The notes under the pieces were generated by a model. It was given only the letters and a program-made list of their open reading frames with translations. It made no database searches and was not told the origin of the DNA. The translations under genes and the position numbers were made by a program. Of a stretch of 64,000 nt of DNA, positions 33,683 through 61,305 are shown piece after piece. Origin of the DNA: Macrostomum lignano (Eukaryota). How positions within the stretch are numbered: the stretch's first letter is position 1; each line of letters starts with the position of its first letter. The DNA is taken from NCBI GenBank assembly GCA_002269645.1, contig NIVC01000292.1, positions 620,001-684,000 on the forward strand, in the 5' to 3' direction.

Positions 33683-33685
33683 GTG

Positions 33686-34610
33686 TGGGATCTGGATCTG
33701 GGATCTGGGATCGGGATCTGGGATCGGGATCTGGGATCGGGATCTGGGATCGGGATCTGGGATCGGGATCTGGGATCGGGATCTGGGATCGGGATCTGGG
33801 ATCGGGATCTGGGATCGGGATCTGGGATCGGGATCTGGGATCGGGATCTGGGATCGGGATCTGGGATCGGGATCTGGGATCGGGATCTGGGATCGGGATC
33901 TGGGATCGGGATCTGGGATCGGGATCTGGGATCGGGATCTGGGATCGGGATCTGGGATCGGGATCTGGGATCGGGATCTGGGATCGGGATCTGGGATCGG
34001 GATCTGGGATCGGGATCTGGGATCGGGATCTGGGATCGGGATCTGGGATCGGGATCTGGGATCGGGATCTGGGATCGGGATCTGGGATCGGGATCTGGGA
34101 TCGGGATCTGGGATCGGGATCTGGGATCGGGATCTGGGATCGGGATCTGGGATCGGGATCTGGGATCGGGATCTGGGATCGGGATCTGGGATCGGGATCT
34201 GGGATCGGGATCTGGGATCGGGATCTGGGATCGGGATCTGGGATCGGGATCTGGGATCGGGATCTGGGATCGGGATCTGGGATCGGGATCTGGGATCGGG
34301 ATCTGGGATCGGGATCTGGGATCGGGATCTGGGATCGGGATCTGGGATCGGGATCTGGGATCGGGATCTGGGATCGGGATCTGGGATCGGGATCTGGGAT
34401 CGGGATCTGGGATCGGGATCTGGGATCGGGATCTGGGATCGGGATCTGGGATCGGGATCTGGGATCGGGATCTGGGATCGGGATCTGGGATCGGGATCTG
34501 GGATCGGGATCTGGGATCGGGATCTGGGATCGGGATCTGGGATCGGGATCTGGGATCGGGATCTGGGATCGGGATCTGGGATCGGGATCTGGGATCGGGA
34601 TCTGGGATCT
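33686..34610. repeat. 13-bp minisatellite (GGGATCTGGGATC)n, ~70 copies, fills GS intron 4
   Basis: Direct; gives the 13-aa [13 protein letters not shown] periodicity. Confidence 0.98.
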
Positions 34611-34638
34611 GAAGTCCGCATCCTCAAAACCCCCACAG

Positions 34639-34793
34639 GCGTGGCGCACCGCGGCTGCTCCATCCGCATCCCGCGGCAGTGCAGTGATGACGGCTGCGGC
34701 TACCTGGAGGACCGGCGGCCGGCCTCCAACTGCGACCCCTACTGCGTCACCGAGATGCTGGTGCGCACCGTCTGCCTGAACGAGTCCGGCTGA
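34639..34793 (+). CDS. GLUL: Glutamine synthetase last exon
   Basis: [28 protein letters not shown]; the 5-exon CDS sums to 1170 nt (389 aa). Confidence 0.97.
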
Positions 34794-37506: not shown

Positions 37507-37996
37507 TGTCACTGACTCATGCCAATCTGTCACTGACTCATGCCAATCTGTCACTGACTCATGCCAATCTGTCACTGACTCATGCCAATCTGTCACTGAC
37601 TCATGCCAATCTGTCACTGACTCATGCCAATCTGTCACTGACTCATGCCAATCTGTCACTGACTCATGCCAATCTGTCACTCACTCATGCCAATCTGTCA
37701 CTCACTCATGCCAATCTGTCACTGACTCATGCCAGTCTGTCACTGACTCATGCCAATCTGTCACTGACTCATGCCAATCTGTCACTCACTCATGCCAATC
37801 TGTCACTCACTCATGCCAATCTGTCACTGACTCATGCCAATCTGTCACTGACTCATGCCAATCTGTCACTGACTCATGCCAATCTGTCACTCACTCATGC
37901 CAATCTGTCACTGACTCATGCCAATCTGTCACTGACTCATGCCAAACTGTCACTGACTCATGCCAGTCTGTCACTGACTCATGCCAATCTGTCACT
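37507..37996. repeat. 21-bp minisatellite (CACTGACTCATGCCAATCTGT)n, left part (continues at 48569-48697)
   Basis: Array split by the LTR element at CACT. Confidence 0.96.
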
Positions 37997-38853
37997 TGTA
38001 GAGTGTTCTACCTCCCGTTAAAAAAAGGAAAAAAGAAGATAATCGTATAATACTACTATAAGTAAGTAAGTACACGCATGTGCGCCTAAGCTTTGAATGA
38101 ATCACGCTACCAGAAAAAGATGTTACCAGAATAATACGCCATGAGCCATTTTCCCCTTTTAGCGCAACACGTGAATTGTCATGATACTATTTTGGATCAA
38201 AAACTTGTCTATAAATACAAGCGATCTGAAGCGGTACCGGAGCCATTCTCCCCACGGAAGAGGAGCGCTCCGAAGAGGAAGCCTTAGGAGGACTTCCTGA
38301 TATACCAAGTCAATCGAGACTCGGTCGAGTTGTTGCGGTAAGCCTTCCTTATTTGCGCCGTTGTGTTAGAGACGTCTCGCTCAAGTCTATTGAGACTTGA
38401 GTCTATTTGAGTCTGTTGAGACTCTTGAGTCTGTTTAGACTCCATTGGTTGCAGTCTCCAGAAGGACTGCCCCTGATAGATCTTAGAGGACTATCAGTGG
38501 TTTCCGGAGCTATACCTAGAGTGCATAGAGGCACTGCTCGAAGAAGGAGGCTTAATTTAGACCGCAGTTTGGCGCAGGGATCCCTTTGTTAATTCGGAAG
38601 CTTCCCATTGGTCCGAGCGACAGAATCCGGCCGGAACTATTTGAAGAAGAAAGAAGAATCGGACCCGATCTACAAACGAAAGTCAGAAGTGACTATACGA
38701 GAGCAACTGAAGACAATCGAGAACTACTCCGAGAGATCTCCAAAGGACTCAAGGTAATTGAATACCTTCTGTTGACTTACTGGGTTGCCTAGCTGCTGAG
38801 CTAGAAGTGATTGTTCCTTGATTATCGAAAGTCGGGTAATAAGGAACACATCA
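37997..38853 (+). repeat. 5' LTR (857 bp), TATAAAT at 38210
   Basis: Matches 47713-48568 except one A in a homopolymer, as far as can be seen by eye. Confidence 0.97.
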
Positions 38854-39567
38854 ATTGGTGATCTCGCCCTCTCGGCACTACTCAAACTTTGAGCAATAGC
38901 CCTGATCAAGCTATTGTAAAGTGACGACAGAGCGACTTCATTAATTTTGCGCGCACGTGTTAGAGTTAACACTTTTCAAGTCCGTACGTTTTGAAACTCG
39001 AGTAAAAAATTTTGGTGTACAGGTTTGAGCACCTGTCAAATTTGAGTACTGTTTGAGCACGCGTGTTAAAATTTTGTTTTGACGAGCTCGAGCAAGTGTG
39101 AGTTAAAATAAAACCGAAATTAAATTCATCGGTACACTGAAAACAAACCGAAAATAAAAGAATCGTCGACGCAAAACAAACAAAAAAATAACGGAAACAT
39201 TTTGCCGGCACAAAAAACTAAAACTGAAATTAATTGAAACTTCGTGGAGAGCGGAGTTAATTGACAAAAGAGAGAGAGTCAAAGAAGAGAAAAAGACTTT
39301 GCAAAACAAGAAGACAAAGCCCACTTCAACTTGAAGATACACTTTGCGGGACGCCGCATAAGTGCGAAATCAGCAAGCGAACAGAACAAGTTCATTTGAG
39401 GACAACCAGTGGCAGCAAGCCACACCGCATCCGAGGCCAGCGAATAACAAATCGACACCACAAGACAATTCGTTACAGTCGAGGTTTATTCCGAGGCAAA
39501 CACCACACTGGACGATCCGTTACAAATCGATCCAGATCTTAAACTACCGTTCTATCCTATCAACAAC

Positions 39568-41868
39568 ATGGCGCGGCGCAATCCAACGGTACACAGAGAC
39601 ATCAAAGAAACGGTCGGTACCTTCTCGATGGAGAAAGATTTTAACACATTTGTCGACCACTTTGACCTGGTATGTAGGGAATACAACCTACAAAATCCAG
39701 AGAAGGCACAGCTGCTGCCACCTCTTCTCCAAGGTACTGCGCGAGAAATTTACGGCAAGCTGGATGCAGCAACACAGCAAAATTATCCAGCACTAATCAT
39801 TCAACTGCGCGCGCATTTCAACCGTTGCGGCACAAACAGATCAGTGCTGCTGCACAAGTTGCATAACAGAAGGATGCAAGCAACAGAATCCTTCCTCGCC
39901 TTTGTGGACGATATCCGCCAGATAATTAAGGCACTGCATCAGCCACCGCTGCAAGCGGCGGACCAACCGCCACTGGGAGCGGCAGAATTGGCCGCCAGAG
40001 AAAGACAACGATTGATGGATCGCGAACAAAACCTCATCCTGCACGTAATAAACAACGCACAGCCGTCACTTCGGGATAGACTTTTGCGTGAAAATATCGA
40101 AACCGAAGAAGACCTTTTGCGGTGCGGAATGCAATGGGAAGCCAGTGCCCCATTAATGACGACAGGCAACAATGAAGTGCAGAAACTGACGCAGCAATTA
40201 AACAAATTAATGCAGCACCAGACAGCTGCTATCGCCGAACAAAAAAGACGAAATGAACGAGCCTCAGCCAGATGTTACTACTGCGGACGAGAAGGACATT
40301 ATCAGATTAATTGTCCCCATTGGTCGACAAGATACGACAAGCCACGACAGACATTCAGCAATCAAAAGCCGCAGAAACCATGGCAGCAATATCAAAATCG
40401 CCAACAAGACATGAGACGCTTCGGAAAGGATGGCCGCTTCGGAAATGATGGCCGCTACGGAAATGACGGCCGCTTCAGAAATGATGGCTACAGGCCACGC
40501 AATGCCAGGTACGCACAAAGACAGCCAACGCAAGCAATGCCACGATACGCGAATGCCATCACGTACACACCGGAAAATGAGCAGCAGGAACAGCAAGTGT
40601 TCACAATTGACGACTTGGAAATGGACTTCACAGTCCCGGAACTTGACATCAGCTTGATCGAAAAGAAGACGACGCACGAGGACAACACTGACAACACAGA
40701 AGAGGCGAATGAAACCGAAATGATCGAATTAAAAGAGACCACCGGAGACAGCAGAGAAAACAGGAAGAAAGTAAATCACAAAAAAAGGGAGGAGGCGGAG
40801 AGCGACACCGGCAACGAAGAAAAGATGAAGACTGGCAGACAAAACAACTATGAATCGACAACAGTGGATGACAACAAAACAAGCACGAAAGACAAAGAAA
40901 TGAGGGAAGAAGAAGAATGTATAAGTTACGGCAACGATCACGACTGCGAGGTGCATGATGGCACGAGCGGATACCGAGCCGAAGAAGGAATACAGGAAGA
41001 ACTGAGAGCGGAAAATCTAAGCTCCGACAGCGATCAAGGCTACGAAATACAATGGAAAGATGAAGAAATGGAAAAAGAACAAATGAAAGAAAAGCCGAGT
41101 TCCGACAGCGACGAATGCTACGAGATCCGATACAAACGAAATGGTGAAGCCTATATTCAAACGGTCGACTACAAGGCAGAGAAAAGATACCAAACGCAAT
41201 GGAGTGAAACAACGGAAACATCGGAAGAAGCTACAGACGAAGATACTGAAATAACCAAAGAGCAAAGCAAATCAGAAGCCTTCCGCCTGAATCAGCCAAT
41301 GGAACAACCGAAAGAATACGATGCGGACATGGAGGATAACGAATGGCAATCGCAGCCAATGCCAGCAAAGACAACGGCAAGGTCCAAGAAGTGGAAAAAC
41401 TGGCTGCTCTGGATCATCGTGATACTACTGATAGCAGTAGTCGCCAAAGCAACGGCAATGGAGAAACCAATGATATGTCCAACGGATGCGCATATCCAAC
41501 CAATGATCTACAAGATACCAACCGACATCAAATGCAGCTACTTCAAGACAAACCAGACGAAGCCAAAGAAGATCACAATTGATCTCTACAAAGCTAACAT
41601 CAAGAAGCATCGACAACTCGGAATAGTGTGCTTTAGAGACAAGCACCTAGTGGAAAAAGTTTGGCGAGGACAGTGGAACAGAATTCGATTTTGGCAACAC
41701 GAACTACATGTGTCGCACGCTGAATGTCTACAATGGAACCAAACACTGTTCTCAAAGGATGGTCAGCTAGAACCGGATGAGAAAGTGGGGAGGCACAACT
41801 TTACCGAACGAAGAACTCAGCAAACGGACGATATGTACACTTTTCGGAAGCATGGACTAACTACATGA
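39568..41868 (+). CDS. gag: Gag (capsid, one CCHC knuckle, acidic linker) fused in frame to a signal/TM segment and the envelope N-terminus
   Basis: CYYCGREGHYQINC (40273-40314); hydrophobic WLLWIIVILLIAVVAKATA (41401-41457) followed by a Cys-containing ectodomain with NQT sequons. Confidence 0.9.
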   Translation: MARRNPTVHRDIKETVGTFSMEKDFNTFVDHFDLVCREYNLQNPEKAQLLPPLLQGTAREIYGKLDAATQQNYPALIIQLRAHFNRCGTNRSVLLHKLHNRRMQATESFLAFVDDIRQIIKALHQPPLQAADQPPLGAAELAARERQRLMDREQNLILHVINNAQPSLRDRLLRENIETEEDLLRCGMQWEASAPLMTTGNNEVQKLTQQLNKLMQHQTAAIAEQKRRNERASARCYYCGREGHYQINCPHWSTRYDKPRQTFSNQKPQKPWQQYQNRQQDMRRFGKDGRFGNDGRYGNDGRFRNDGYRPRNARYAQRQPTQAMPRYANAITYTPENEQQEQQVFTIDDLEMDFTVPELDISLIEKKTTHEDNTDNTEEANETEMIELKETTGDSRENRKKVNHKKREEAESDTGNEEKMKTGRQNNYESTTVDDNKTSTKDKEMREEEECISYGNDHDCEVHDGTSGYRAEEGIQEELRAENLSSDSDQGYEIQWKDEEMEKEQMKEKPSSDSDECYEIRYKRNGEAYIQTVDYKAEKRYQTQWSETTETSEEATDEDTEITKEQSKSEAFRLNQPMEQPKEYDADMEDNEWQSQPMPAKTTARSKKWKNWLLWIIVILLIAVVAKATAMEKPMICPTDAHIQPMIYKIPTDIKCSYFKTNQTKPKKITIDLYKANIKKHRQLGIVCFRDKHLVEKVWRGQWNRIRFWQHELHVSHAECLQWNQTLFSKDGQLEPDEKVGRHNFTERRTQQTDDMYTFRKHGLTT

Positions 41869-43346
41869 CACGAAACAGTTACCTAATCAGGAATATTCCA
41901 TTCTATCACAATCCTTTTGAAAAAATGGAGTCGCTACAACTGCAATTAAGCGACTGCCGATACAGCAAAGGATGGTGTCCAACGCCGATACTGCGGAATG
42001 AGGAACTATACAGCTTACCGTTGAGTCCAACATATCATCAAGACTATCGATGGCAAATTATACGCAGAGGCGACTCACGATATGAAGAACCATCTAAGTC
42101 ACGACAATACTTCTTCGCGTGGGAAGTTGAGCCGGAAATTGACTGCAAGCTTCAAAAGTATCACACAGTTGAAGGAGGACTACTGTCAAATACGTTTTTG
42201 GCAAAGTCAGGAGACTTGGCACTGACGTTTCAAAAGAAACCAGTCGAGCAAAAACTGAAATGCAAGGATACAGACAAGACACTATTCATCTCGGAACAAG
42301 AGATACCAGTCTACGTAAAAGATGACGACAAACAAACCTTTCTGGCGATCATCAACGGAACGTATCAACAGCAGGAACAACAGAACAGACGACGACGTGA
42401 CATCGAACGTCCCAAACTGGTGTCAAACCGACTACTGTCAGCAAAGATAACGGCTTTGGATCACAATCTACACAACCAGTTAAACCACTTGCATCGAACA
42501 CTGGTCCAGCTAACTTGCAAAATGCACGCAATCAACTTAAATTATGCCAGACAAAACTACTATGTCAACCCTACGATGACTTTTCGTAAAATCACCGGAA
42601 TGACGAACGTTTTGGCAGTTCCAATATACGAGCATCTGTTAATATACAAGTGCACGCCGATACAGCACTTTAACATCTTGCCGTCGAACACGTCAACAAC
42701 CTGCTACGACAAGCCAAGGATTGAAGCGTTCTACGAAGGAAAACGAATTCAGGGATTCTTGGACACGGTACACAACATCATCGTTGGCACCGCAATACCG
42801 AGACCTTGCACCACGGCAGCAAACTACTATCAACTGGACAATGCACTACACGTCATCAAAACAACTGGAACGACAGCAAACGTCACAGAACCGGAAGTAA
42901 TCGTCGACGAAAACTACGACATGGAGGATTTGAAAATCCGATTCAACAGAACGAAGTATACGCCATTCGCCGATATCCAACTTGACGAGATAACACCAGG
43001 ATGGACGATCAACGACTTCTTGCAAGCGTTCATCACCCAACGCAAGATGATTCACCAGCTGTTCACAAGAAAGGACAAAGGAACCGGGACAGGAAGATTT
43101 CCCGTCCTTGTTTCAATGGACAGCGCCATCAAATCATTTTGGACAAATAGCTTCTGGGAGCTGCTCAATGGAAGAGGCAGTCTCTATCAAGGATTCATCT
43201 TCTACGGTGCTTGCATTGTGTGGATTGTCACGGCAATCTTCATCATTTCATCGATCGTACGGTGCTTCAGTCAAACTTGTCCAAGAGCTAAGAAGACAGT
43301 GAATGCCATAATGCAAAGAACGACAACGGAAGCGACAACAGTTTAG
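41781..43346 (+). CDS. env: Envelope glycoprotein, class III (gB/chuvirus-like), central and C-terminal part
   Basis: Frame open from 41781; DCRYSKGWC, furin-type RRRR (42387-42398), long helix then NPT..RK..G...V.A......L.I.KC (gB domain III/IV-like), CYDKP...GFLD, several N-X-S/T, TM FIFYGACIVWIVTAIFIISSIV. Confidence 0.8.
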   Translation, partial: ESGEAQLYRTKNSANGRYVHFSEAWTNYMTRNSYLIRNIPFYHNPFEKMESLQLQLSDCRYSKGWCPTPILRNEELYSLPLSPTYHQDYRWQIIRRGDSRYEEPSKSRQYFFAWEVEPEIDCKLQKYHTVEGGLLSNTFLAKSGDLALTFQKKPVEQKLKCKDTDKTLFISEQEIPVYVKDDDKQTFLAIINGTYQQQEQQNRRRRDIERPKLVSNRLLSAKITALDHNLHNQLNHLHRTLVQLTCKMHAINLNYARQNYYVNPTMTFRKITGMTNVLAVPIYEHLLIYKCTPIQHFNILPSNTSTTCYDKPRIEAFYEGKRIQGFLDTVHNIIVGTAIPRPCTTAANYYQLDNALHVIKTTGTTANVTEPEVIVDENYDMEDLKIRFNRTKYTPFADIQLDEITPGWTINDFLQAFITQRKMIHQLFTRKDKGTGTGRFPVLVSMDSAIKSFWTNSFWELLNGRGSLYQGFIFYGACIVWIVTAIFIISSIVRCFSQTCPRAKKTVNAIMQRTTTEATTV

Positions 43347-46300
43347 AACTAACAGAAACTGCACATTGTGAGGTTCAAGGGCAACCGACACTAGCAACGC
43401 GGCTATATCCATCGATTCCGACAACACCAACGGCACCAAGGATACAACCACCCAACTATCAAGCAGAACAGCACGAGCCAAAATGGCCGGAAAACTACGT
43501 CTGTACGCTACACGCCGAGATTGGCAAAGCAATGGCTCAGGTCATTGTCAACAACTTGCCATGTCGAGCACTACTGGATTCAGGCAGCTCGATCACAGTC
43601 ATCTCGCAACAATTATGCAACAAGCTACGACTCGCGGTACGACCAGCAGCAATCGCAGTTGCAGGAGCAGGAGGACATTCACTCAACATCCTAGGAAAAG
43701 CAGATATCGACTTGAAAATTGCTAATAAACAGCTGACGGTCCCGACGTACATCATCGACAGACTACCAAACCAAGACGTCATCGTTGGAATCGACACGTT
43801 CAAGCAGCTTCAACTACCATTGACCTTCGACTTCAACAAGCAAACGTTTAGGATCGACACGGTGGAGCAACCGCTGATCAACCAGATTCGAGTACTACCG
43901 AAAGTAACTCTGCAGCAAGATGTCATTATCCAGCCTGAAAGCGCATGCTGGGTCAGAGCGAAAACGACCAGCGCGGCAGATGAAGCAATGATATTTGATC
44001 CACACAGGAGAGTCACGGCAAAACATCAAATCATGATGCCTACGGCACTAGTGCTGGTTGCAAAGGATAAGCAACTGCCAGTACAAATCTTCAACCCGAA
44101 CACAGAAACGGTTCATCTACGACAAGGAATGTGCATCGGTCATCTCAACACCCAAGCATCGGTTATGCTGATTGAACAAGCGACTCCACGACTAACAGAG
44201 GAAGAATTTCAAAAGAAGATCAATTTGGATGACAGCCCGATTACGGAACAGCAAAAGAGGAAAGTTCGACAGCTGTTGTGGAAGTACAACGAAGCCTTCT
44301 GCCATCATGATTACGACATCGGACGAGCCAAGGACATCAAACAGGAAATCAAACTTCTGCCGCACACGGAACCAATTCAGTGCAAGCCGTACCCGATCGC
44401 CAAGCATCTGCAACAACACTTTGACGAAATCATCGATAAAATGCTAAAGCACGGCATCATCAGCAAAGCTATTTCGGCTTACTCCTCACCGTGCCTACTG
44501 GTACAAAGAAGGAGACAAACGAAAGACGACTCGTATGCGACTTCAGACTGTTGAACAAGTACATACCGACGGATCAGCAAAGCCTACCGAAGATCTCCGA
44601 ACTACTAGCAAAGCTCAACACGGCAAAATTGTTCACGGTGTTCGACCTACGTCATGGATTTTGGCAAATTGAAATCGAGAAAGAGTCACGACAGTACACG
44701 GCTTTCAAAACCTACAATGGACAAGTATACGAGTACAATCGATCGCCGATGGGACTCAGCAACAGCCCAGCAACGATGAGCCGACTAACAGCATACATGC
44801 TTGCAGGATGCACGAACCTGTTGCACTATGTTGACGACATCTTGGCCCACGGAGAAGACTTCGAACGACTCTATGAAGCGACGGAGAAGGCCCTCGCGCT
44901 TATACAACGTCAAGGTCTGAAGCTACAACCACTAAATGCAAATTCTTCCGAGACAACGTGCGTTACCTGGACATCAGGTGACAGCCAAAGGAATCTCACC
45001 GGACCCAGACAACGTGGAAAAGGTGAAGAAGTTTCCTACGCCAACCAGTATAACGAAGGTCCAATCATTCCTTGGACTTGCGCAATACTTCAGGAAGTTC
45101 TTACCTAACTTCGCAAAGACAGCAAAGCCACTGTACGACCTGCTCAAGTTCGACAAATGGAAGCAAGACAACTGGACACAGAGACAACAGGAAAGTTTCG
45201 ACGAAATCAAACGACAGCTGACATCAGACGCACTGCTACAGCATCCGGACTTCGACAAGCCCTTCATCATCGAGACAGACGCCTCAGGAACGGGACTCGG
45301 AGCAGTCCTACTACAGGAAACCGAGGACAAGAAGGAACGACCTATTGCTTACGTCAGTCGAGCACTCAAACCAAATGAGACAAAGTGGTCAGCTACGGAA
45401 CGAGAGCTACTAGGAGTCTTGTTCGCCCTGCGACAGTTTCATTACTACATCTATGGTTCTCCAATACAGACGATAGTACGCACGGATCATGCACCATTGA
45501 CCTACGTCGTAACTACAAAAGGACAGACCAACAACCGACTCATCAGGATGACACTCAAGATCCAGGATTACAACTACAAACTCGTCTACAAACCAGGAAT
45601 TACCAACAAAGCCGCGGACGCCCTGTCAAGAGCCTATGAAGTCAACGCCATTCATCCAATCCCTAACATCAAGGAGTTGGTGGATGAAACCGAGCGCGAC
45701 AACTTCTACCAAGCGGTTAAAGACGACGACAAGAACATCAAACTTAGCCCCATGGAACGAAAGTTCCTACGCAAGCAACGACAACACCTAACAATCAATA
45801 AGTCACGGCTCTACTGGATGAGCGACAATAAACCCAAGATCTACATACCATATTCGTTTCGGCAAGCAATTCTCAACGAGCTACACGACAACCCACTCGC
45901 TGGACACCTGTCGGCAGCAAAGACCATCGCGAGAGTGGAACAATACTACTTTTGGCCAACTATGTACGGCGACATCAAGCAGTATTGCAACAACTGCCAT
46001 TCATGTGCTGCATCAAAGACAGGACGACGACAGAAACCGCAGCTACAGTCCATTCCGAAGTCGACTACAATGGACTGTCTAAGCATCGACATCACCGGAC
46101 CACTGCCACCGAGCTGTCTCCAGGGCATCGCCTACACCTACATTCTAACCGCCTTGGATATCTTCTCGAAGTTTGCTATCGCCATACCGATACCGGACAT
46201 CACAGCTCAGACAGTGGCAATGAGTTTCTTCAACGAAATCATTTGCAAGTACGGCACGCCGAAGAACCTCACATCGGACAACGGATCGCAGTTTACATCG

Positions 46301-47038
46301 CAACTGTTTCAGCAAGTCGTAAGGATTCTCAACATTACGCAGATCTACACATCGACCTACAATCCGAAGGCAAACATGGTTGAACGGTTTCACCGCAACC
46401 TGCACGAGATGATTACACATTTCGCGCACCAACAGCCGGAAGACTGGATCATCTACCTGCAATCTGTAACAATGGCCTACAACAGCGCTATTCATCGATC
46501 AACGGACAATACGCCATTCTTCCTAATGTTTGGACGAGACTTCCAACCGCCGAATCTGCTCGCACAGCAATTGCTACCATCGCAGTACGTGGAAGTACCG
46601 ACTTCCATTCAGAAATTCGTCACGCAACTACACCTCGCATGGAAGATCGCCAAGCACAACATTGACAACCAGGTGGCTCTGACCACCGGCAACGACGCGA
46701 GATCGACAACCCTGACGGCCGGCGACATCGTTTACCTACACTACCCGCCGCAGCAGACGCATAAACATGCACAGAAGTATAAAGGACCCTATCGAGTGGT
46801 CCAACTAACGTCACCGACAACGGCACGCCTGGCTAATGTACAAGATCCACATCAGCACCAGTTCTACGTACACATTCATCGACTAAAGAAGATCAACACT
46901 GACACCGCGACGTTTCTACCGACATTAGACAACGCTGATCGCACGCGTTCAACGAACCGCCACATCGCGACGAAGCACGAGGAGACTCAAACGACAGATG
47001 TGAGCCAGCCACATGGCTACAACCTACGACCACGCTAG
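43292..47038 (+). CDS. pol: Pol (PR, RT, RNase H, integrase) broken by three single-base frameshifts
   Basis: LDSGSS; YSSPCLLV; FDLRHGFWQI; YVDD; ETDASG, TERELLG, TDHAPL, ADALSR; H-x6-H...C-x2-C; IDITGP, SDNGSQF, VERFH; GPY/F motif KGPYRV. Confidence 0.95.
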
Positions 47039-47158
47039 AGTTTAGAGAACAACCCCGTGTAGTGACCGGGATAAAGAATAGCACTACAGCTTCGCAAGCT
47101 TGTCGTAAAAGGCGACTAATCCGAGCGACACAAAGACAGCGACAAATTGACAACAATT

Positions 47159-47533
47159 ATGGGCAACGCACTGTCGAAACAGGCGCCCCAGCCTCAGCAG
47201 CTATATGACTGCCCGATATGTTTAACTGATGACTTGGCTGTCAAGCCACCGACTATTTGCATCAACGAACATAAAGTTTGCGGACAATGTTTAAGCGATT
47301 CACATTATATTCAGCCATGGCAGAATTGTCCCCTCTGTAGAGATAGTTTGCGACAATGTGCCTATTGTTATTCTTGGCGCACGTTTCAATATTGTAACCA
47401 CCAACATTTTATTTGCATGCACTGTTTGAAGCAAACCGCTAGTAGGGGCGTTATAGGATGCCCCTTATGTAATAGTATGCCGCGAGACTGCACGTTTCGA
47501 AAGTGGTGTCGGATCAAACCTGATGCCACTTGA
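47159..47533 (+). CDS. 124-aa N-myristoylation-motif, tandem-RING protein inside the LTR element
   Basis: MGNALS; CPIC-x12-C-x3-H-x2-C-x2-C-x12-CPLC then CAYC-x8-C-x3-H-x2-C-x2-C-x11-CPLC. Confidence 0.8.
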   Translation: MGNALSKQAPQPQQLYDCPICLTDDLAVKPPTICINEHKVCGQCLSDSHYIQPWQNCPLCRDSLRQCAYCYSWRTFQYCNHQHFICMHCLKQTASRGVIGCPLCNSMPRDCTFRKWCRIKPDAT

Positions 47534-47712
47534 TGTCTACGCGATATTCGAGTTTTGACCGCAATATGTACTGAAAAGTTTTTAGAGTTTTGACCAAACC
47601 CTCGCTTCACTAGACGCGCACAAAATCAATTGTTTATTTCCTATATTAACTGATCACCACAGAATTTTATTGTTAAAACTCGGGACGAGTTTTTTCGTAA
47701 AAAGGGAGATTT

Positions 47713-48568
47713 TGTAGAGTGTTCTACCTCCCGTTAAAAAAGGAAAAAAGAAGATAATCGTATAATACTACTATAAGTAAGTAAGTACACGCATGTGCGC
47801 CTAAGCTTTGAATGAATCACGCTACCAGAAAAAGATGTTACCAGAATAATACGCCATGAGCCATTTTCCCCTTTTAGCGCAACACGTGAATTGTCATGAT
47901 ACTATTTTGGATCAAAAACTTGTCTATAAATACAAGCGATCTGAAGCGGTACCGGAGCCATTCTCCCCACGGAAGAGGAGCGCTCCGAAGAGGAAGCCTT
48001 AGGAGGACTTCCTGATATACCAAGTCAATCGAGACTCGGTCGAGTTGTTGCGGTAAGCCTTCCTTATTTGCGCCGTTGTGTTAGAGACGTCTCGCTCAAG
48101 TCTATTGAGACTTGAGTCTATTTGAGTCTGTTGAGACTCTTGAGTCTGTTTAGACTCCATTGGTTGCAGTCTCCAGAAGGACTGCCCCTGATAGATCTTA
48201 GAGGACTATCAGTGGTTTCCGGAGCTATACCTAGAGTGCATAGAGGCACTGCTCGAAGAAGGAGGCTTAATTTAGACCGCAGTTTGGCGCAGGGATCCCT
48301 TTGTTAATTCGGAAGCTTCCCATTGGTCCGAGCGACAGAATCCGGCCGGAACTATTTGAAGAAGAAAGAAGAATCGGACCCGATCTACAAACGAAAGTCA
48401 GAAGTGACTATACGAGAGCAACTGAAGACAATCGAGAACTACTCCGAGAGATCTCCAAAGGACTCAAGGTAATTGAATACCTTCTGTTGACTTACTGGGT
48501 TGCCTAGCTGCTGAGCTAGAAGTGATTGTTCCTTGATTATCGAAAGTCGGGTAATAAGGAACACATCA
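47713..48568 (+). repeat. 3' LTR (856 bp)
   Basis: See 5' LTR. Confidence 0.97.
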
Positions 48569-48693
48569 CACTGACTCATGCCAATCTGTCACTCACTCAT
48601 GCCAATCTGCCACTCACTCATGCCAATCTGTCACTGACTCATGCCAATCTGTCACTGACTCATGCCAGTCTGTCACTGACTCATGCCAGTCTG

Positions 48694-49155
48694 TCACTGC
48701 AGAAATTTGTGCTCCAGCAGCTCCGCGGTGGCCGCTCGCCTCCTCGGCTCCCTCTGGACGCACCGTCCGTAGAAGTCCCTCAGCAGGGCGGAGGTCCCGG
48801 CCGGCAGCTGCGGCATGTCGTGGTTTCGAATCCTCAGCGGGATCTGCTGCCACATGAGCTGCCCATTCGGAGGCTTTATCTCCAGCATCTCGAACACGGA
48901 GCAGCCGAAAGCCCACACGTCAGTCTTGCGTGAGTACACGATTCTTCCGTCCTCACTGAACAGCTCAGGAGCCATGAAGTAGGGGGTGCCGCAATCCCTC
49001 TTGGTGCTGCGCATCGTGGCGAAGACCTCCTTGGCGAGACCGAAGTCGATCAGCTTGATGAGGCCCTCGTTGGTGAGCATCAAGTTGGAGCACTTGATGT
49101 CACGGTGCAGGGTGACGGGACTGCGGCTGTGCAGGAAGTGGAGCGCTGAGCAGAT
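48694..49155 (-). CDS. Ankyrin-kinase A, last exon (MAP3K/STE11-like Ser/Thr kinase C-lobe)
   Basis: [28 protein letters not shown]; acceptor actcacag. Confidence 0.93.
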
Positions 49156-49176
49156 CTGTGAGTTGGGGAGCGAGTG

Positions 49177-49420
49177 AGCAGGGGTAGTGTGGGATCTGAG
49201 CTGCTTGGAGAAGTTTCTCACTGCTGCATGGGGTGGTGTGGGATCTGAGCTGCTTGGAGAAGTCCCTCACTGCTGCATGGGGTGGTGTGGGATCTGAGCT
49301 GCTTGGAGAAGTCCCTCACTGCTGCATGGGGTGGTGTGAGATCTGAGCTGCTTGGAGAAGTCCCTCACTGCTGCATGGGGTGGTGTGGGATCTCACTTGC
49401 TTGGAGAAGTCCCTCACTGC
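49177..49420. repeat. 49-bp exon/intron-junction minisatellite, 4 copies plus the original
   Basis: Unit = last ~24 nt of the exon plus the start of the intron. Confidence 0.92.
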
Positions 49421-49787
49421 TTCCTCATCGAAGGGCCGTCGCTGCAGCTGCATCAGCTCAGAGAGGCTGTGGCCGGAGATCAGCTCGGTGAAGATGCACA
49501 GCTTGCCCTTCTTGATGCGCTCAGACTTGAGGAACTGCACGATGTTCGGGTGCCGGATGGCCTTCAGGACGGAGATCTCCGCATTCTCCTTCTCGATGGC
49601 CTCGTCCATCAGCCTGGCGCTGCTGGCACCTTCCAGCCTGACGATCTTGACAGCCACAGTCTGGCGCTTATCGGTGAACGCCTTGTACACCTGGCCGAAG
49701 CCACCTGCTCCGAGCAGCTGCTTGTTGCCGTCACCATCGAGAAGGAAGTCCCAGCTGGAGAAGGCGGGGTCCAGAGACGGCCTCGCA
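49397..49787 (-). CDS. Ankyrin-kinase A, kinase N-lobe exon
   Basis: LGAGGFGQVY, VAVK, NAEISVLKAIRHPNIVQF. Confidence 0.92.
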
Positions 49788-49942
49788 CTGAAAGAGGAGA
49801 GGGTTGGGAGACTGAAGCACTGCGGGATTGCTGCAGAAATGGGGAACTGAGCAGGCAGGGAGAGTCTGTCAGGTGATCATTGTGAGCCACTCTTAGCTGA
49901 ACCAAATGCAATTTCTCAAGTGAAAAGTGGAAGACGGCCTGC

Positions 49943-51522
49943 CTTGCTGACGGAGTCTCCTCGGACTGCGCGTCCACCGCCCGCCGCAGCTGCAAGCCCG
50001 ACATCGCCTGGCCCAGCCTCCGCTCTTCTCCATCAGGCTGCTGCCGCCGCTGCTCTGCGATCCACTCCCGAATCCGAGCTCCGTGCTGAGAGTTCCGCTC
50101 TGCGTAGTCGGCCACCGACTTGCCACCGGAATCGAGAAAGTCAAATACGGCGAGGCCGAGAGAGTCCGCGATGAGGCGGAGCGAGTCCAGGTCGTGATCC
50201 TGAGCAGCCAGGTGAGCAGGTGTGGCTCCGTTTGAGTCTTTTTCCAACAGACAGGCCGGACCGAGCTCAGAGATGAGCCACTTGAGACAGGAGTTGGTCT
50301 CATTCATAGCAGCTTTGTGAATGGCAGTTTGTTGTAAGTAGCCAGGCTGATGGAAGCAGTCGGATCCGAGGACTGATTTGAAGAACTGCATGGAATCGGC
50401 GCCCTGAAACTTAGCAGCGAGATGGACGGGAGTGTTTCCTTGTTGGTCTCGAACGGAGAGACAGTCGGTTCCGCACTCGTTCACCAGCCACTTGAGACAG
50501 GAGTTAGTAGCTTCATTCCTAGCGGCCCAGTGAATGGCAGTGCCTTGTAAGTAGCCAGGCTGATGGAAGCAGTCGGATCCGAGGACTGATTTGAAGAACT
50601 GCATGGAATCGGCGCCCTGAAACTTAGCAGCGAGATAGACGGGAGTGTTTCCTTGTTGGTCTCGAACGGAGAGACAGTCGGTTCCGCACTCGTTCACCAG
50701 CCACTTGAGACAGGAGTTGGTCGCTCCATTCACAGCGGCCCAGTGAATGGCAGTTTCTTGTGAGTAGCCAGGCTGATGGAAGCAGTCGGATCCGAGGACT
50801 GATTTGAAGAACTGCATGGAATCGGCGCCCTGCTTCCAAGCAGCGAGATGGACGGGAGTGTTTCCTTGTTGGTCTCGAACGGAGAGACAGTCGGTTCCGC
50901 ACTCGTTCACCAGCCACTTGAGACAGGAGTTGGTCGCTCCATTCACAGCGGCCCAGTGAATGGCAGTTTCTTGTGAGTAGCCAGGCTGATGGAAGCAGTC
51001 GGATCCGAGGACTGATTTGAAGAACTGCATGGAATCGGCGCCCTGCTTCCAAGCAGCGAGATGGACGGGAGTGTTTCCTTGTTGGTCTCGAACGGAGAGA
51101 CAGTCGGTTCCGCACTCGGTCACCAGCCACTTGAGACAGGAGTTAGTAGCCCCATTCTCAGCGGCAAAGTGAATGGCAGTGCGTTGGAGTCGGCCAGGCT
51201 GATGGAAGCAGTCGGATCCGAGGCTGCGGTGAATGAGCTCCATCCATGACACATCTCGAAACAAGGCAGCCAGGTGCACAGGAGTGTTGCCTCTTTCGTT
51301 GGTGCAGGTGAGGCAGTCGGGTCCGAGTTTCTTAATAAGAGCCTCGAAGCAGCGGAGACCGTCGGATAGATAGGTCACGTGATGAGCAATGGACTGATTC
51401 AACTGGTTGATGTTGACTGCGAAGTTGGCGTCGAGCTGCCGGCAGAGGGGGAGCAGGCGGCCTGCGTCCTTGGCACGGAGGGCTGCAGCGACTTCTTCGC
51501 GCACTGAGGCTTGCTGGGCCAT
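49943..51522 (-). CDS. Ankyrin-kinase A, exon 1: ankyrin-repeat array with 213-bp (71-aa) tandem units
   Basis: Repeated GNTPVHLAA / TAIHWAA motifs; ATG preceded by ctgcagac; 3' end inferred at a GC donor matching the phase-2 intron of paralog B. Confidence 0.85.
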
Positions 51523-54460: not shown

Positions 54461-54570
54461 CTCGCAGATCTCGCAGGCAATCCAATGCTACTCAGTTATG
54501 CTACTCTACTGCCTACTTCCAGTAGTGCAAGCGCAGCCAGTCAGACAAACACCGAGCAGCAGCCGCTCAC

Positions 54571-55385
54571 CTGCTGGTCGGTGAGGTGAGCAAACGGCTG
54601 CTCCCTGCAGAAGGTGAGCATCTCCCAGAGCGTCACGGCGAAGCTCCAGACGTCGCTGCGGCAGGAGAAGCGGCCGTGCAGGACGGCCTCCCAGGCCATC
54701 CAGCGGATCGGCAGCGAGGCGCCGCGACCTCCGTCCAGCCTGCAGTAGTCAGCAGAGTAGAGAGGCTGAGACATGCCAAAGTCGCAGATCTTTACCTGGT
54801 AGTCTTCACCCAGCAGGCAGTTGCGGCAGGCCAGGTCTCGGTGCACCAGCTGCAGGGACTCCAGGTACTTCATGCCGCTGGCAATCTGAGCTGCCAGGTA
54901 GATGAGGCAGCCGTGAGAAAGCGGCGGCTCAGGTGATGCTGCAGCGGCCGCCCTGGAGCGCAGGAACTGGTGCAGGTCCCCATGCTGCATGAACTCCACC
55001 AGGATGCACTGCTGCGCCGCTGCGTCCTTGGTTGCCACGCCCAGCACCCTGACGATGTTCGGGTTTTGCAGGCGCGCCAACAGCCGCATCTCGCGCCGGA
55101 AGTCGCGGCGCGCCTGCGGCCCCGCGCCAAGCCGGAGAGTCTTGGCCGCCACCAGCAGCAGCCGGCCGCCAGGAGCGGCCCACTCGGCCAGGCGGACCTC
55201 GCCGAACTGGCCGGCACCAAGGCGCTCTTTCAGCGCCACGGAGCCCGGCGCCACCTCGAGAGCGGCGACCGCGTCGGAGTCGGCGCCGCCGTCCAGATCG
55301 TCAGGGACTCCAGCGACACCGCCGCAGTCCATGGCGGAGGCGAGGTCCGCGTCCGGACAGGCGTAGACTGTGTTGCCCGAGCAGC
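54571..55385 (-). CDS. DDR: DDR-like receptor tyrosine kinase, juxtamembrane + kinase exon
   Basis: GCSGNTVYACP (DDR juxtamembrane), LGAGQFGEV, HRDLACRNCL, DFGMSQPLYSADY, LPIRWMAWE, SDVWSFAVTLWE. Confidence 0.9.
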
Positions 55386-55970: not shown

Positions 55971-58134
55971 TCAGTGGGAAATATGAGATGTTGAGGCAAT
56001 AGGGTAATCCCCTAATCCTCGTAACAGGTGAGTCAGGCCACCTGTTGATGTGCATGCCGTGAGCCTATGAACATGCTGACGTTGCAAGCGACTTTCTGCC
56101 ACAGGCGGCACTGGTCTCTTGGAATCGAAAATTGCTAGAAGCGGTTTGTGGCCAGTGACCAGGATGAAATTTCGACCAAACAGGTACTTATGGAACTTCT
56201 TAAGTCCAAATATAATTACCAATGCTTCATTTTCAATTTGGGCATAGTTATTTTCAGCAGCTGACAGTTTTCTAGAAGCGTAGGCGATTGGCCTGTCTCC
56301 GGTCTTTGTTTCATGAGAAATGACCGCACCAAAACCGTAAGGTGAAGCGTCATATTCTAGCTTCAGCTTCTTGGACAGATCATAGTGAGTCAGCACCTTT
56401 CTTGAAGTAAGTTGATCTTTGACGTGCTTGAACGCGGATTCGAACTCGGCTGGCCAGTCGAAATCCTTTTCTTTTCGAAGTCGCAAGTAAAAGGGGTGCA
56501 TCCGAGTTGCCAGATTCTGGATGAATTTTCCATAGTAATTTACCAGTCCAATTCAAGCCCTCAGCTCGGACACATTTCGTGGGCGTGGAGCCTCATGGAT
56601 AGCTCTGATCTTGTCCTCAGTTGGGTGAATTCCCTTTTCATCCATCCTGTATCCAAGGAAAGTGATAGACGTCTGCTCGAATTTGCACTTCGACTTCTTT
56701 AGTCTGACACCTCGCTCTCGAAAGCGTTGCAAAACCTTCTTCAGATTTTGCAAGTGTTCCTCGGAATTCTTGCCAACTACTAAAACATCGTCAATGAAGC
56801 AGATGACTCCGCTCAGTCCTTGCAGCATCTTGTCCATGGCCATCTGGAAAACTACCGGTCCACTGGCTAGTCCGTATTGCAGCCGCTGGCACTGAAACAA
56901 TCCCTTGTGCGTATTGAGCACAATGTACTGTTTGGAGTCTTCGTCCAATTATAGCTGCAGAAATGCTTGAGTAGCGTCCAACTTAGGGATATACTTGCCT
57001 CCATTTAGAGAACTAAACAGATCTTCCTGCCTGGACAATGGGTACTGGTCGACAATCAGAACCTTGTTCAGTGTCGTCTTGAAATCCGCAAATTCTCACT
57101 GATCAAAGCGAACAGGCTTTTTGGTTATCAAAATTTCTACGAAGTAAGCAGGGTTACCTCTGTCAAATACCCGATTAATGCTTGGTGGTGATACTCTGGC
57201 TTCTTGGCCACACGGTTCATTCGCGAAGTACTCCGTAACTTGCTTGTTGCGAAATCCTTTCAGAGCCACGGTAGACTTACATGCAACTCCCAGGTGTCCT
57301 TCTTTTCCACACTTGTTGCACTTTTTATTACGATGTGGGCAAGCATTTGCCAAGTGATCTGGGCCAGAGCAACGGTAGCACCTGCGAGTAAATGTAGGCT
57401 TCTCCTTGTTTCCTTCCCTGATTTGGCGGGTCACAGTAGCGCGTCGAAAAGCTGGCTTCCGCTTCTGGAGCTGGTTGCTTCGAGTGCCAACTCTGTTCAC
57501 TGCTGGAGCAGATCCTTGGATGCTGCGAGCGTTCTTGAATGCATTCTCAATGACCTGGGCCTCCTCAACTGCGACCTTGAATGTCGAGTCGTCTTTTAGA
57601 GTGGTCAACAGTTTGTTCAACATATGCTCGTCTCTGAGGCCGAAGTCAAAAGCATCGCGGAGCGCTTGATCCAGGAATGCATCAAACTTGCAGCTGGCAC
57701 TGAGGCTTCGAAGACTTACAACGAAGTCGGCTATGGTCTCGCCATCCTTCTGCTTCCTTTGAGCGAATACGAATCGTTGAGCAATAGAGCTCAATTCCGG
57801 TGTAAACTGGTGCCGGAGTGCAGTCAGTAGCTCCTCGTAGGACTTGTCCTCGCACTTCGCTGGCGCAATTGCGTTCCTCAGAATTGAGTAAGCCTCTTCT
57901 CCGATCAGGGTCAGCAGGTTCGCCTTTTCTCAGCTTCATCAGTGACTTTCTTGGCCACATGAAAATACTCCAGCCGCTCCTCGTACTCCTCCCAGTTCCG
58001 AGGGTTGCTGCAGTTGAATGGTTCGATAACCGGCCTCGTCGCCATTGTTGTGTTTGTATCGTATTTCCTAAAAGCCGTTTATTATAAAAGCAAGCACGCA
58101 GGCTCGAAGCCTAAGGAACGCAGCTTTCACAACA
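55971..58134 (-). mobile_element. Degenerate Mag-like Ty3/Gypsy element (5' LTR, gag, partial RT/RNase H)
   Basis: Candidate 89-bp LTR TGTTGTG...CACAACA (58046-58134); PBS TGGCGACGAGG overlapping the gag ATG at 58045; gag with two CCHC; FIDD RT; RNase H IAYASRKL; frameshifts, stops and PR deletion; no 3' LTR seen. Confidence 0.88.
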
Positions 58135-59244
58135 GGCTCATGGCTGCTGCCAGTGTCATGCTGTTTCTGGAACAATCGATCAGCAGTGTCTGTCCAACTG
58201 AAGTCGGAGGTCGCGAACTGCTGCAGAGGCGCCTCTTGCAGGTGAAGAATTTATTATTATTTGCAGCTCTTTGCTCTCTGTTAAACAAAAGTACAAAGCC
58301 AGAAGCAGTACCTAAATGCTCGCATCTCACTGCAATGAGCGCCACGGAGCCCGGCGCCACCTCGAGAGCGGCGACCGCGCCAGAGTCCGCGCCGTCCAGT
58401 CTGACTTTCGAGCGCCATCTGTCTGCAGGCGTCACCGCAGGCGCCGGAATTTCTCAGTCAGCCCATAGACAGCAATAACTTGGTAAACAAAATTCCGCAG
58501 TTGCTATGGAGACAACCCGATTTTGTGAATCGGAAATTTTGATGCTTTTGAATCTGCATAAAATATTCTCCATTTATTTATTCCAAAAAATCAGGGTAAT
58601 TATAATTATTGCAATCAGGGGATAAATATTGCAGTCAGAGGGATAAATATTGCAATTAAGGAATAATTATTGCAATTAAGGGATAAGTAGTATAATCAGG
58701 GGATAAATAAACTTTCGCACACACGAACACTGATTCAAATTCGCTCATTGCTACTTGTCAGTAGTTGATCTCTCACATCTGGCCATCACAAGCAGTCCCT
58801 CAGGTGCATAAAAAGTAACTCAGCGTGTGAGCTGTGAAAGCTCCAATTAAAACGCCTTTCTGTCGATAAGAGCTGCAAGAATGCCTGCAGGGCATGCAGA
58901 GCCAGCAGCTGAGCCATAGGGGGCTCACAGATAAGGCCGCCTGTTCACCGCAGCTGAGCACACGTGAGGCATTCTAGCGGTGAAATGCTTGGCGTACTGT
59001 TCTGCTCTGACAAAATCAGCAGTGCATTTTATATAATCATTATTTTGGTGCCATGGCTCAGTGACTCGGCACAGACTTTTCATTTTAGCACTTTTATATT
59101 AGCTCACAGCGAATTTGACTTGGCCTCGAAGTATGCTTAACGGGAGAATATGTTTATGTCTTTGAGGGAGATGATTTCCACTGTTGACAGTTCTCAGAGA
59201 GACAGCGGAACAACAGCACTGAAATCACAGCTTCTGATTGACCA

Positions 59245-59315
59245 TCTGTCACTGACTCATGCCAGTCTGTCACTGACTCATGCCAATCTGTCACTGACTC
59301 ATGCCAGTCTGTCAC
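59245..59315. repeat. 21-bp minisatellite (same unit as 37507-37996), ~3 copies
   Basis: Begins at the stop codon of kinase B. Confidence 0.9.
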
Positions 59316-59773
59316 TGCAGAAATTTGTGCTCCAGCAGCTCCGCGGTGGCCGCTCGCCTCCTCGGCTCCCTCTGGACGCACCGTCCGTAGAAGTCCCTCA
59401 GCAGGGCGGAGGTCCCGGCCGGCAGCTGCGGCATGTCGTGGTTTCGAATCCTCAGCGGGATCTGCTGCCACATGAGCTGCCCATTCGGAGGCTTTATCTC
59501 CAGCATCTCGAACACGGAGCAGCCGAAAGCCCACACGTCAGTCTTGGGTGAGTACACGATTCTTCCGTCCTCACTGAACAGCTCTGGAGCCATGTAGTAG
59601 AAGGTGCCGCACTCCGTCTTGGTGCTGCGCATCGTGGCGAAGACCTCCTTGGCGAGACCGAAGTCGATCAGCTTGATGAGGCCCTCATTGGTGAGCATCA
59701 AGTTGGAGCACTTGATGTCACGGTGCAGGGTGACGGGACTGCGGCTGTGCAGGAAGTTGAGCGCTGAGCAGAT
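59312..59773 (-). CDS. Ankyrin-kinase B, last exon (kinase C-lobe)
   Basis: Near-identical to 48694-49155; [16 protein letters not shown]. Confidence 0.92.
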
Positions 59774-59794
59774 CTGTGAGTTGGGGAGCGAGTG

Positions 59795-60285
59795 AGCAGG
59801 GGTGGTGTGGGATCTGAGCTGCTTGGAGAAGTCCCTTACTGCTGCATGGGGTGGTGTGGGATCTGAGCTGCTTGGAGAAGTCCCTCACTGCTGCATGGGA
59901 TGGTGTGGGATCTGAGCTGCTTGGAGAAGTCCCTCACTGCTGCATGGGGTGGTGTGGGATCTGAGCTGCTTGGAGAGTCCCTCACTGCTGCATGGGGTGG
60001 TGTGGGATCTGAGCTGCTTGGAGAAGTCCCTCACTGCTGCATGGGGTGGTGTGGGATCTGAGCTGCTTGGAGAAGTCCCTCACTGCTGCATGGGGTGGTG
60101 TGGGATCTGAGCTGCTTGGAGAAGTCCCTCACTGCTGCATGGGGTGGTGTGGGATCTGAGCTGCTTGGAGAAGTCCCTCACTGCTGCATGGGGTGGTGTG
60201 GGATCTGAGCTGCTTGGAGAAGTCCCACACTGCTGCATGGGGTGGTGTGGGATCTCACCTGCTTGGAGAAGTCCCTCACTGCTGC
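59795..60285. repeat. 49-bp junction minisatellite, 9 copies plus the original
   Basis: Same unit as 49177-49420. Confidence 0.93.
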
Positions 60286-60580
60286 CTCATCGAAGGGCCG
60301 TCGCTGCAGCTGCATCAGCTCAGAGAGGCTGTGGCCGGAGATCAGCTCGGTGAAGATGCACAGCTTGCCCTTCTTGATGCGCTCAGACTTGAGGAACTGC
60401 ACGATGTTCGGGTGCCGGATGGCCTTCAGCCTGACGATCTTGAAAGCCACAGTCTGGCGCTTATCGGTGAACGCCTTGTACACCTGGCCGAAGCCACCTA
60501 CTCCGAGCAGCTGCTTGTTGCCGTCACCATCGAGAAGGAAGTGCCAGCTGGAGAAGGCGGGGTCCAGAGGCGGCCTTGTA
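60259..60580 (-). CDS. Ankyrin-kinase B, N-lobe exon with a 69-nt in-frame deletion
   Basis: 322 nt vs 391 nt in A; KIVRL fused directly to KAIRHP. Confidence 0.88.
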
Positions 60581-60939
60581 CTGAAAGATGTTGAAAGACT
60601 GAATGAAGCAAAGCGAGATGGCTGCAGAAATGGGGAACTGAGCAGGCAGGGAGAGTCTGTCAAGTGATGATGTCATGGGACAGTGTACGGCTGACTAGTT
60701 CTATCTCTCTCTCCGTCATCACTGTCCCATTGAAATAGGTACAGCCAACAACTCTGTTTAATCAAGTCTAGAAGTAATAAGCAATAGCACAACCAAATAT
60801 ATAAAAACAAGCCCTGCTCAGTGGAAGTAAAATCTTAAAGGCTTCGTGTCAGAAATAGAGCGAAATTTGAATTTTCTACATTGGCATTGCAAACTATCGA
60901 ACAAACAAGCGCAGTGGCTAATATTATCTCTGTCGCCAC

Positions 60940-61305
60940 GAGTGCCATTCAATCCATCCAGCTACTCAGTCACGCAGTGGGCGGCCTGGTCAATTAGATT
61001 TGACTATTTCATTGCAGCGTCTGGAGTCTCAGAAGAAAACAGAATAAGTGCCATTAAATCTGGCCCAGTAAGTGTGGCATCTACTGCTCTCTGGAGATCT
61101 CCAGAGAAGTGCAAGCCAATCGCACAGACTCAAGAGAATCGCTGGAGAAGCTTTTGCCTCAACTGACCAAAACCTGGTCTTCGCACGGTATCAGTTTCGG
61201 CAGTGCACACAACAGCTGGGAGAGACCATAGACAGCCTGGCAGGCTTACGGTAGTGCGCGCATCTCGGTTTGGCATTCCGAAGACGGTTAAGCAGGGTGA
61301 CGAGG
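60940..61305 (+). pseudogene. Mag-like gag relic in intron 1 of kinase B
   Basis: PFNPSSYSVTQWAAWSIRFDYFIAASGV and NLVFARYQFRQCTQQLGETIDSL in broken frames. Confidence 0.7.

Follow-up and report, generated by a model that had tools for sequence, protein, structure and literature searches.

A cassette of tandem double-RING genes downstream of pol in a gB-type env-bearing errantivirus of Macrostomum lignano

Errantiviruses with the gene order GAG-ENV-POL and a gB-type env have been published for flatworms, nematodes and bryozoans (PMC13524379). The supplement of that study lists one of them, Mlig_errantivirus_2, from Macrostomum lignano, with an LTR of 863 bp, 16 copies and the same 12-nt primer-binding site as the element described here. 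Extra open reading frames are also on record for other invertebrate LTR elements, namely ORF3 of rotifer elements (PMC5408684), CERV of Cer1 (PMC10309623) and sORF1/2 of the MDG1 group (PMC11952523). Like the genes reported below, these are lineage-specific accessory genes beyond gag, pol and env, partly spliced or myristoylated; in the parts of these sources that were covered, however, none is reported as a RING protein, whereas here tandem paralogues lie beside a true env. The main text of PMC13524379 does not contain the words “RING”, “accessory”, “zinc” or “splic”, and “RING” does not occur in the main texts of PMC12801592 and PMC5408684.

We found no published description of the gene cassette reported here, in a search that covered supplements in part (Repbase and the earlier LTR classification of this host could mention such ORFs), and none in the literature of a RING ligase for an animal LTR retrotransposon. 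To our knowledge, hardly any countermeasure to host control that is encoded by the element itself is known among animal LTR retrotransposons. Large DNA viruses encode RING E3 ligases with a possible role in counter-defence.

The locus lies in a 64,000-nt stretch of M. lignano DNA, referred to here as the window. The window contains a recently inserted Ty3/gypsy errantivirus whose own gB-type env lies between gag and pol (Table 1). The element measures ∼10.6 kb from LTR to LTR, is inserted within a 21-bp minisatellite and is delimited by TG...CA LTRs with a primer-binding site, a polypurine tract and a 4-bp target-site duplication; the Pfam domain order of its pol, PR-RT-RH-IN, is that expected for Ty3/gypsy errantiviruses. 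It is young because its two LTRs are identical at 857 of 858 positions. Gene order, env type, primer-binding site (GCGAGATCACCA), an LTR of ∼860 bp, a span of ∼10.6 kb and the multi-copy state are all shared with Mlig_errantivirus_2 (PMC13524379). Matched by features, not by sequences, the window element is most likely a short form of that family; the type of element is already known, and this family probably is as well. What differs from Mlig_errantivirus_2, in the parts of its published description that were covered, is a 3′ cassette with its paralogues and an RNA pseudoknot, all absent from that description.

Table 1. Features of the errantivirus copy in the window
Feature	Position	Strand	Basis or remark
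Target-site duplication CACT	37993..37996, partner 48569-48572	+	sequence comparison
5′ LTR, TG...CA	37997..38853	+	857/858 identity to 3′ LTR
TATA box in 5′ LTR	38210-38217	+	
Splice-donor-like G/GTAAGC in 5′ LTR (slash, splice point)	38338	+	no ATG between TATA box and donor
Primer-binding site TGGTGATCTCGC	38856..38867	+	12-mer shared with a catalogued Macrostomum errantivirus row (PMC13524379, supplement)
gag with zinc knuckle, in frame via internal signal/TM segment (41389-41469) into N-part of env	39568..41868	+	
env C-part, gB/chuvirus-type fusion glycoprotein; TM 43182-43274	41865..43346	+	Pfam PF24664, E 9.5e-6
Furin-like RRRR site in env	near 42387	+	
pol: protease, RT, RNase H, integrase	43532..47038	+	Pfam, ORF frames
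Conserved non-coding element with pseudoknot	47054..47117	+	15 nt past pol stop
Truncated ORF-A, 124/222 codons, MGxxxS start	47159..47533	+	
RING1	47210-47341	+	
RING2	47357-47470	+	
ORF-A helical-domain coding remnant and deletion junction	47534..47663	+	homology to about 47631
Polypurine tract	47699..47709	+	
3′ LTR	47713..48568	+	

The env matches the PF24664 fusion glycoprotein at 24.3 bits, just under the curated cut-off of 27, and is flanked by signal and TM segments as judged by hydropathy; a sequence search of the PDB gave no match for it. The window copy contains four frame breaks, near 41790, 43335, 44510-44550 and 44935-44970, of which those in pol are either real or assembly indels. 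Several sister copies have a single open gag-env-pol frame of ∼2,500 codons. In this arrangement Gag would be cytosolic and tethered by the Env signal, with Env lumenal and Pol cytosolic, such that membrane targeting would be possible without a matrix protein. Two further stretches of the element stand out. The long acidic low-complexity spacer that separates the Gag zinc knuckle from the Env signal (window 40600-41380) is the most variable part of the polyprotein, and a short stretch of inverted-repeat character ahead of the polypurine tract (window 47664-47710) is 80-97% conserved across all subfamilies.

Between the integrase stop at 47038 and the polypurine tract lies the ORF that a sequence-only reading of this DNA had singled out. 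Its site, its length of 124 aa, its MGNALS start and its two tandem RINGs with C-x3-H spacing, 6 residues apart, are borne out, as is the remark that Gag starts MARR and has no myristoylation motif, Gag being devoid of Gly2. That reading had also taken the ORF to be intact and to occupy the position of env. Instead, a separate env lies between gag and pol (PF24664, signal/TM segments, RRRR site), so the RING ORF is no stand-in for env; and sister copies read through to 222 aa, followed by a second paralogue in ∼1.2 kb of sequence absent from the window copy. The ORF is more than a chance reading frame, because its protein has at least 151 matches in the M. lignano genome (a lower bound, as 150 of 212 candidates were scored) and its family is under purifying selection. 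The MGxxxS motif is uncommon, following 9 of the 1236 ATGs in the window (0.7%), and by itself is weak evidence.

Among the best 30 of the at least 151 matches, 23 have a short 3′ end like that of the window copy, six carry ∼1.2 kb of extra sequence before the LTR and one is divergent. In the long copies ORF-A, of 222 aa, is followed by a paralogue of ∼210 aa, ORF-B, and distant subfamilies (pol ∼70-75% identical) have two or three tandem paralogues. The cassette lies between integrase and the 3′ LTR, with ORF-A the first of its two to three genes. Full ORF-A proteins comprise 216-222 aa, and full paralogues overall ∼198-222 aa, built from RING1, RING2 and a five-helix domain. The window ORF is a 3′-truncated copy of ORF-A: homology runs beyond the stop at codon 125 to ∼47631 and then skips to the region before the polypurine tract, the remainder of ORF-A and the whole of ORF-B being absent. 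Codons 1-107 resemble the long form and the remainder an older short-form copy, which suggests recombination onto an earlier deletion.

Public assemblies beyond the Macrostomum genome searched yielded four homologues (P0001, P0003, P0006 and P0007). The family extends past that genome, since P0006 is at most ∼36% identical to anything in it. P0002, a shorter and weaker double-RING match, stands outside the alignment. No host donor gene was found among the best 150 matches listed per single-protein genome search, and no cellular full-length homologue in protein searches; word-indexed protein searches gave nothing among 12 candidates and none at E≤1e-5 among 624. Family matches without pol nearby occur at three loci (L057, L058 and L083).

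RING1 has the ligand pattern C-x2-C-x12-C-x3-H-x2-C-x2-C-x12-C-x2-C and RING2 the pattern C-x2-C-x8-C-x3-H-x2-C-x2-C-x11-C-x2-C, and the zinc ligands of both are present in 26-27 of the 27 aligned members at each position. In RING1, Pro58 and a basic residue at position 61 (R in 26, K in one) are found in all 27 members, giving the ligase-type motif CPxC[R/K]; RING2 has the proline in 18 of 27 and a basic linchpin in none. The linchpin favours the closed E2~Ub state, with exceptions among known cases, and RINGs that look ligase-like can be pseudoligases (PMC11992055, in the part covered). Compared with solved structures, the family profile matches the SIAH1 RING best (E 8.4e-6), followed by the RINGs of TRIM5 and TRIM21. 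This match and the linchpin (R/K in 27/27) lend sequence support to the E3 ligase that the earlier reading had offered as an alternative. Of the 27 members, 22 match Sina_RING (the one displayed score falls short of the curated cut-off), and the Pfam matches of the window ORF itself are weak and under the cut-off (zf-RING_2, E 0.003; Sina_RING, E 0.02). SIAH/TRIM-type C3HC4 E3 ligases share the ligand pattern of RING1, with C-x3-H and CPxCR. In contrast to them, a second RING follows 6 residues on, and the five-helix C terminus is unrelated by Pfam to the SIAH substrate domain or the TRIM B-box; the Sina substrate-binding domain is absent by Pfam and the C-terminal part is all-helical.

AlphaFold2, run on the 27 aligned members, returned a confident model (pLDDT 88.7, pTM 0.81) in which 11 disordered residues at the N terminus precede the two RINGs and a C-terminal domain made of helices. 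The helical domain contains a near-invariant W-P and is predicted to fold alone (pLDDT 81). Searched on its own, it gave a best Z of 6.8 (rmsd 3.7, 86 aligned), within background, a best BFVD E of 0.73 and no ESM hit. Fold searches with the full model, a check that the sequence-only reading had proposed, gave RING-level matches, none of them significant: there was no match at E≤0.001 in the PDB or BFVD, and arenavirus Z and retroviral matrix were absent among the matches listed. Weak single-RING matches to RINGs of large DNA viruses reached E 3.9e-3. The RING E3 ligases of such viruses (ICP0, giant-virus RING proteins) resemble the cassette proteins by single-RING similarity alone, with no match of the whole architecture.

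Pairwise Nei-Gojobori dN/dS could be computed for 9 of 10 ORF-A pairs, at 0.12-0.24, and for 10 of 11 pairs of downstream paralogues, at 0.17-0.28 (one pair per set was saturated). It is 0.10-0.37 for the helical domain alone, and 0.10-0.36 for codons 1-107 of the window ORF against 7 of 12 ORF-A types (five saturated); all values are approximate, as pairs share ancestry and several have dS >1. Neutrality of the cassette family is excluded, a result that holds for the family and says nothing about the truncated form. The earlier reading had named neutral dN/dS, or an ORF disrupted or absent in most related copies, as grounds for its refutation. dN/dS is far from neutral, in its favour, but most recent copies are truncated.

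Two recently amplified lineages have lost most of the cassette, which can therefore be dispensed with in cis over short periods. In addition to the lineage of the window copy, a second young family, with at least ∼20 matches, retains an ORF-A of just 70 codons, in which RING1 is broken, and lacks ORF-B; its LTR pairs are 99.8-100% identical in the three of three checked. In a non-autonomous family from which most of env and pol has gone, the two RING genes are both complete, and the one copy that was fully checked has identical LTRs. This young family (L039, L054, L102; G000 C301, C1192 and others) consists of gag, the N-part of env and two RING genes, has lost nearly all of pol and occurs in at least eight near-identical places. 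Counted by eye, at least 65 of 71 env-bearing contigs also carry a match to ORF-A; of the other six, three end before the cassette position, one is broken in the protease and two have env near the contig end. Clade-bound, under long-term selection and dispensable in cis, the cassette thus has the profile of accessory genes and not that of a core structural protein. Elsewhere in the genome, nested and broken-up copies from several subfamilies, with many 3′ ends and LTRs among them, lie densely on G000 C2121, C1130, C87, C272 and C4009 (L031-L036, L038, L045), in clusters that perhaps resemble piRNA-cluster-like traps.

The non-coding element that follows pol is composed of an H-type pseudoknot, an optional hairpin and a second hairpin. 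It is 59-64 nt long, starts 10-18 nt past the pol stop in 23 of 29 parsed places and is found in all subfamilies, with 94-95% identity between window and subfamilies against 58-59% for the adjacent end of pol. Base pairing between the hairpin loop and a segment further downstream is present in 19 of the 20 distinct sequences (6/6 pairs in 13, 5/6 in six; one unparsed), and the three sequence versions of this pairing are linked by compensatory change. The element also holds a conserved ACAG, a possible 3′ splice site. The three matches from an Rfam search (E 6-10) all lie off the pseudoknot, and the pseudoknot pattern was found 0 times in metagenome contigs. Pistol and HDV-like ribozyme folds were considered and dropped, as a required stem is missing. 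The element may shield the long-3′-UTR genomic RNA from decay, control the ORF-A splice site or block a 5′ exonuclease.

Signals in the sequence suggest that the cassette genes are expressed from spliced subgenomic mRNAs. A splice donor, G/GTRAGC, is present in the LTR in 8 of 11 rows (8 LTR types), the other three being incomplete LTR promoters, and sits 109-128 nt past the TATA box with no ATG between. At the other end, 21 of the 27 distinct contexts, all of second-position genes, have a CAG 0-2 nt ahead of the start codon; the six without it are of the third-position type. One UniRef gene model (P0004), itself a prediction, joins LTR exon sequence to a cassette-type ATG. LTR and paralogue sequence of this element also occurs in a UniRef entry assigned to M. 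lignano. Trans-splicing is common in flatworms and is an alternative user of the CAG acceptors. The earlier reading had suggested looking for a spliced or subgenomic transcript. Contigs of four presumed-RNA runs were compared with a copy of the long form. Among the 15 joints listed, none linked the LTR donor to ORF-A or ORF-B, and the comparison also left 114 loose ends; one 1271-nt contig spans ORF-A/ORF-B unbroken, and a joint matching the short form is found in three of the four runs. This comparison covers 4 of 24 runs and neither supports nor excludes splicing or expression; splicing is something we infer. Contigs of two of the four runs have a joint from 2450 to 7332 of L066, which leaps over 4881 nt between env and the post-pol element, has non-canonical ends and is probably an internally deleted copy. 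Readthrough of the pol stop codon into ORF-A was rejected, given that all three frame offsets occur across the 23 parsed places and that the window has in-frame stops.

Considered together, the sequence evidence leads us to favour, by a modest degree, a reading in which the cassette encodes accessory E3-ligase-like proteins that act on host factors. The genes would be expressed via subgenomic RNAs spliced from the LTR donor; RING1 would bind E2~ubiquitin, RING2 would serve as a structural or partner RING, and the divergent helical domain would pick the substrate, with different paralogues directed at different targets. That these are most likely host restriction or silencing factors is purely inferred. 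One ORF-A lineage may have acquired an N-myristoylation signal that would place this paralogue on membranes, whereas the 124-aa product of the window, devoid of the helical domain, is probably a partly functional or non-functional remnant, the window lineage either copying without a cassette or being complemented in trans. Selection on the whole genes is purifying and not visibly positive, which is atypical of an arms race and counts against a role on host factors. Any benefit of the cassette must be conditional, because most recent copies (23 of the best 30) are without an intact one. The more elaborate proposal is tentative, and we hold it possible rather than probable: a family of ligases, each with two RINGs and a helical substrate domain of no earlier assignment, would have been duplicated into two to three specificities and be expressed from spliced subgenomic RNAs, with a new pseudoknot ahead of the genes. 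It would serve to degrade factors by which the host silences or restricts the element, and would be shared in trans between autonomous copies without the cassette and pol-less copies that retain it. An unlikely competitor, drawn by analogy with CERV, is that the proteins regulate the RNA of the element itself without catalysis, acting on its export, its splicing balance, its translation or its escape from NMD, with the RINGs as interaction scaffolds and the pseudoknot perhaps as their cis site. It would account for an element that has splice signals and yet must export unspliced RNA, and for a conserved RNA structure directly upstream of the cassette; Cer1, reported as sister to a flatworm gB-type errantivirus (PMC13524379, in the part covered), requires its spliced, cysteine-rich CERV for export (PMC10309623, likewise). 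However, the H, M and G domains of CERV are unlike a RING-RING-helical protein, the RING1 linchpin is kept in 27/27 members and lineages with truncated cassettes still amplified.

The remaining explanations place the protein at the membrane. The sequence-only reading had proposed a myristoylated RING matrix in env's place that links Gag cores to the membrane, as arenavirus Z does, a protein with Gly2, a single RING at its centre and a late domain at its C terminus (PMC3497041, in the part covered). The MGxxxS start, the compact RING2 (38 residues from first to last ligand), a Gag without Gly2 and an ESM-feature search in which the Z cluster ranked 17 (score 0.87, a lead only) agree with it, and the proteins are likewise small viral RING proteins with a Gly2 motif, in one ORF-A lineage only. 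Yet Gly2 is confined to the window protein and 7 of 12 ORF-A types, and is found in 0 of 11 downstream paralogues and 0 of 4 outside homologues. Late domains (PT/SAP, PPxY, YPxnL) are missing from the window protein and all 12 ORF-A, although 1 of the 11 downstream paralogues contains a YPxnL, and no YxxL was spotted by eye in the window protein; these two gaps make a Z-like matrix unlikely. In addition, PF03854 (zf-P11) is absent at E≤1 for the window protein and at E≤0.01 for the 27 members, the Z cluster has a length of 95 aa against 198-222 aa for the cassette proteins with their two RINGs and helical domain, the frame that Gag shares with the Env signal segment would allow tethering without a matrix, and the cassette is dispensable in cis, young lineages having amplified without an intact one. 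At the level of the family this proposal is largely refuted, and we regard it as very improbable. Myristoylation of the one ORF-A lineage is nonetheless plausible, because MGNAxS[K/R] is kept across ORF-A types at dS up to ∼1.8, with a synonymous change at Ser6. The same conservation speaks for an E3 ligase devoted to the element's own particles, which would ubiquitinate Gag/Env tails or membrane proteins for ESCRT or receptor clearance, with the myristoylated paralogue at the budding membrane. Every env-bearing copy followed to its 3′ end has at least a cassette remnant, and a function needed only for spread between cells would disappear from lineages that multiply solely within the genome; but most paralogues have no membrane anchor and the truncated-cassette families include copies with long open gag-env-pol frames, and we judge such a role improbable. 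A separate question from that of the full cassette is whether selection acts on the 124-aa form as such, which, bound to membranes, could serve as a RING-RING decoy or a sink for E2. Exactly 124 aa are found in 15 of the best 30 copies (11 identical), the switch from long-form to older short-form sequence falls at codon ∼108, just past RING2, and the window ORF differs from a 144-aa sister type by six synonymous and three non-synonymous changes. Such changes can come by recombination from the long form, however, single copies lose Gly2 (two copies) or zinc ligands, and the parallel family with a broken RING1 amplified to at least ∼20 copies; we consider selection on the short form doubtful.

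If the more elaborate proposal is true, the cassette would be a retrotransposon counterpart of Vif/Vpu/ICP0 that carries its own RING. It offers concrete candidates for countermeasures in an apparent laboratory flatworm open to RNAi and proteomics on natural copies. Copies with three, two, truncated or almost no accessory genes coexist in one genome, and their comparison bears on what such genes are worth to an enveloped retrotransposon. Neither the helical domain nor the pseudoknot matches a family.

On the minus strand, two similar genes that we take, by recognition, to encode ankyrin repeats and a protein kinase lie at window 48694-51522 and 59312-63970. Exons at 3082-23354 (minus) presumably belong to a phosphorylase-kinase regulatory subunit, those at 32419-34779 (plus) to a glutamine synthetase and those at 54541-55332 (minus) to a DDR-like tyrosine kinase, judging by resemblance. 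Two other fragments, at window 16417-19053 and 55971-57623 (minus), are by recognition presumably Ty3/gypsy-like and env-less. Near 59150-59318 there is another occurrence of the 21-bp minisatellite into which the element is inserted.
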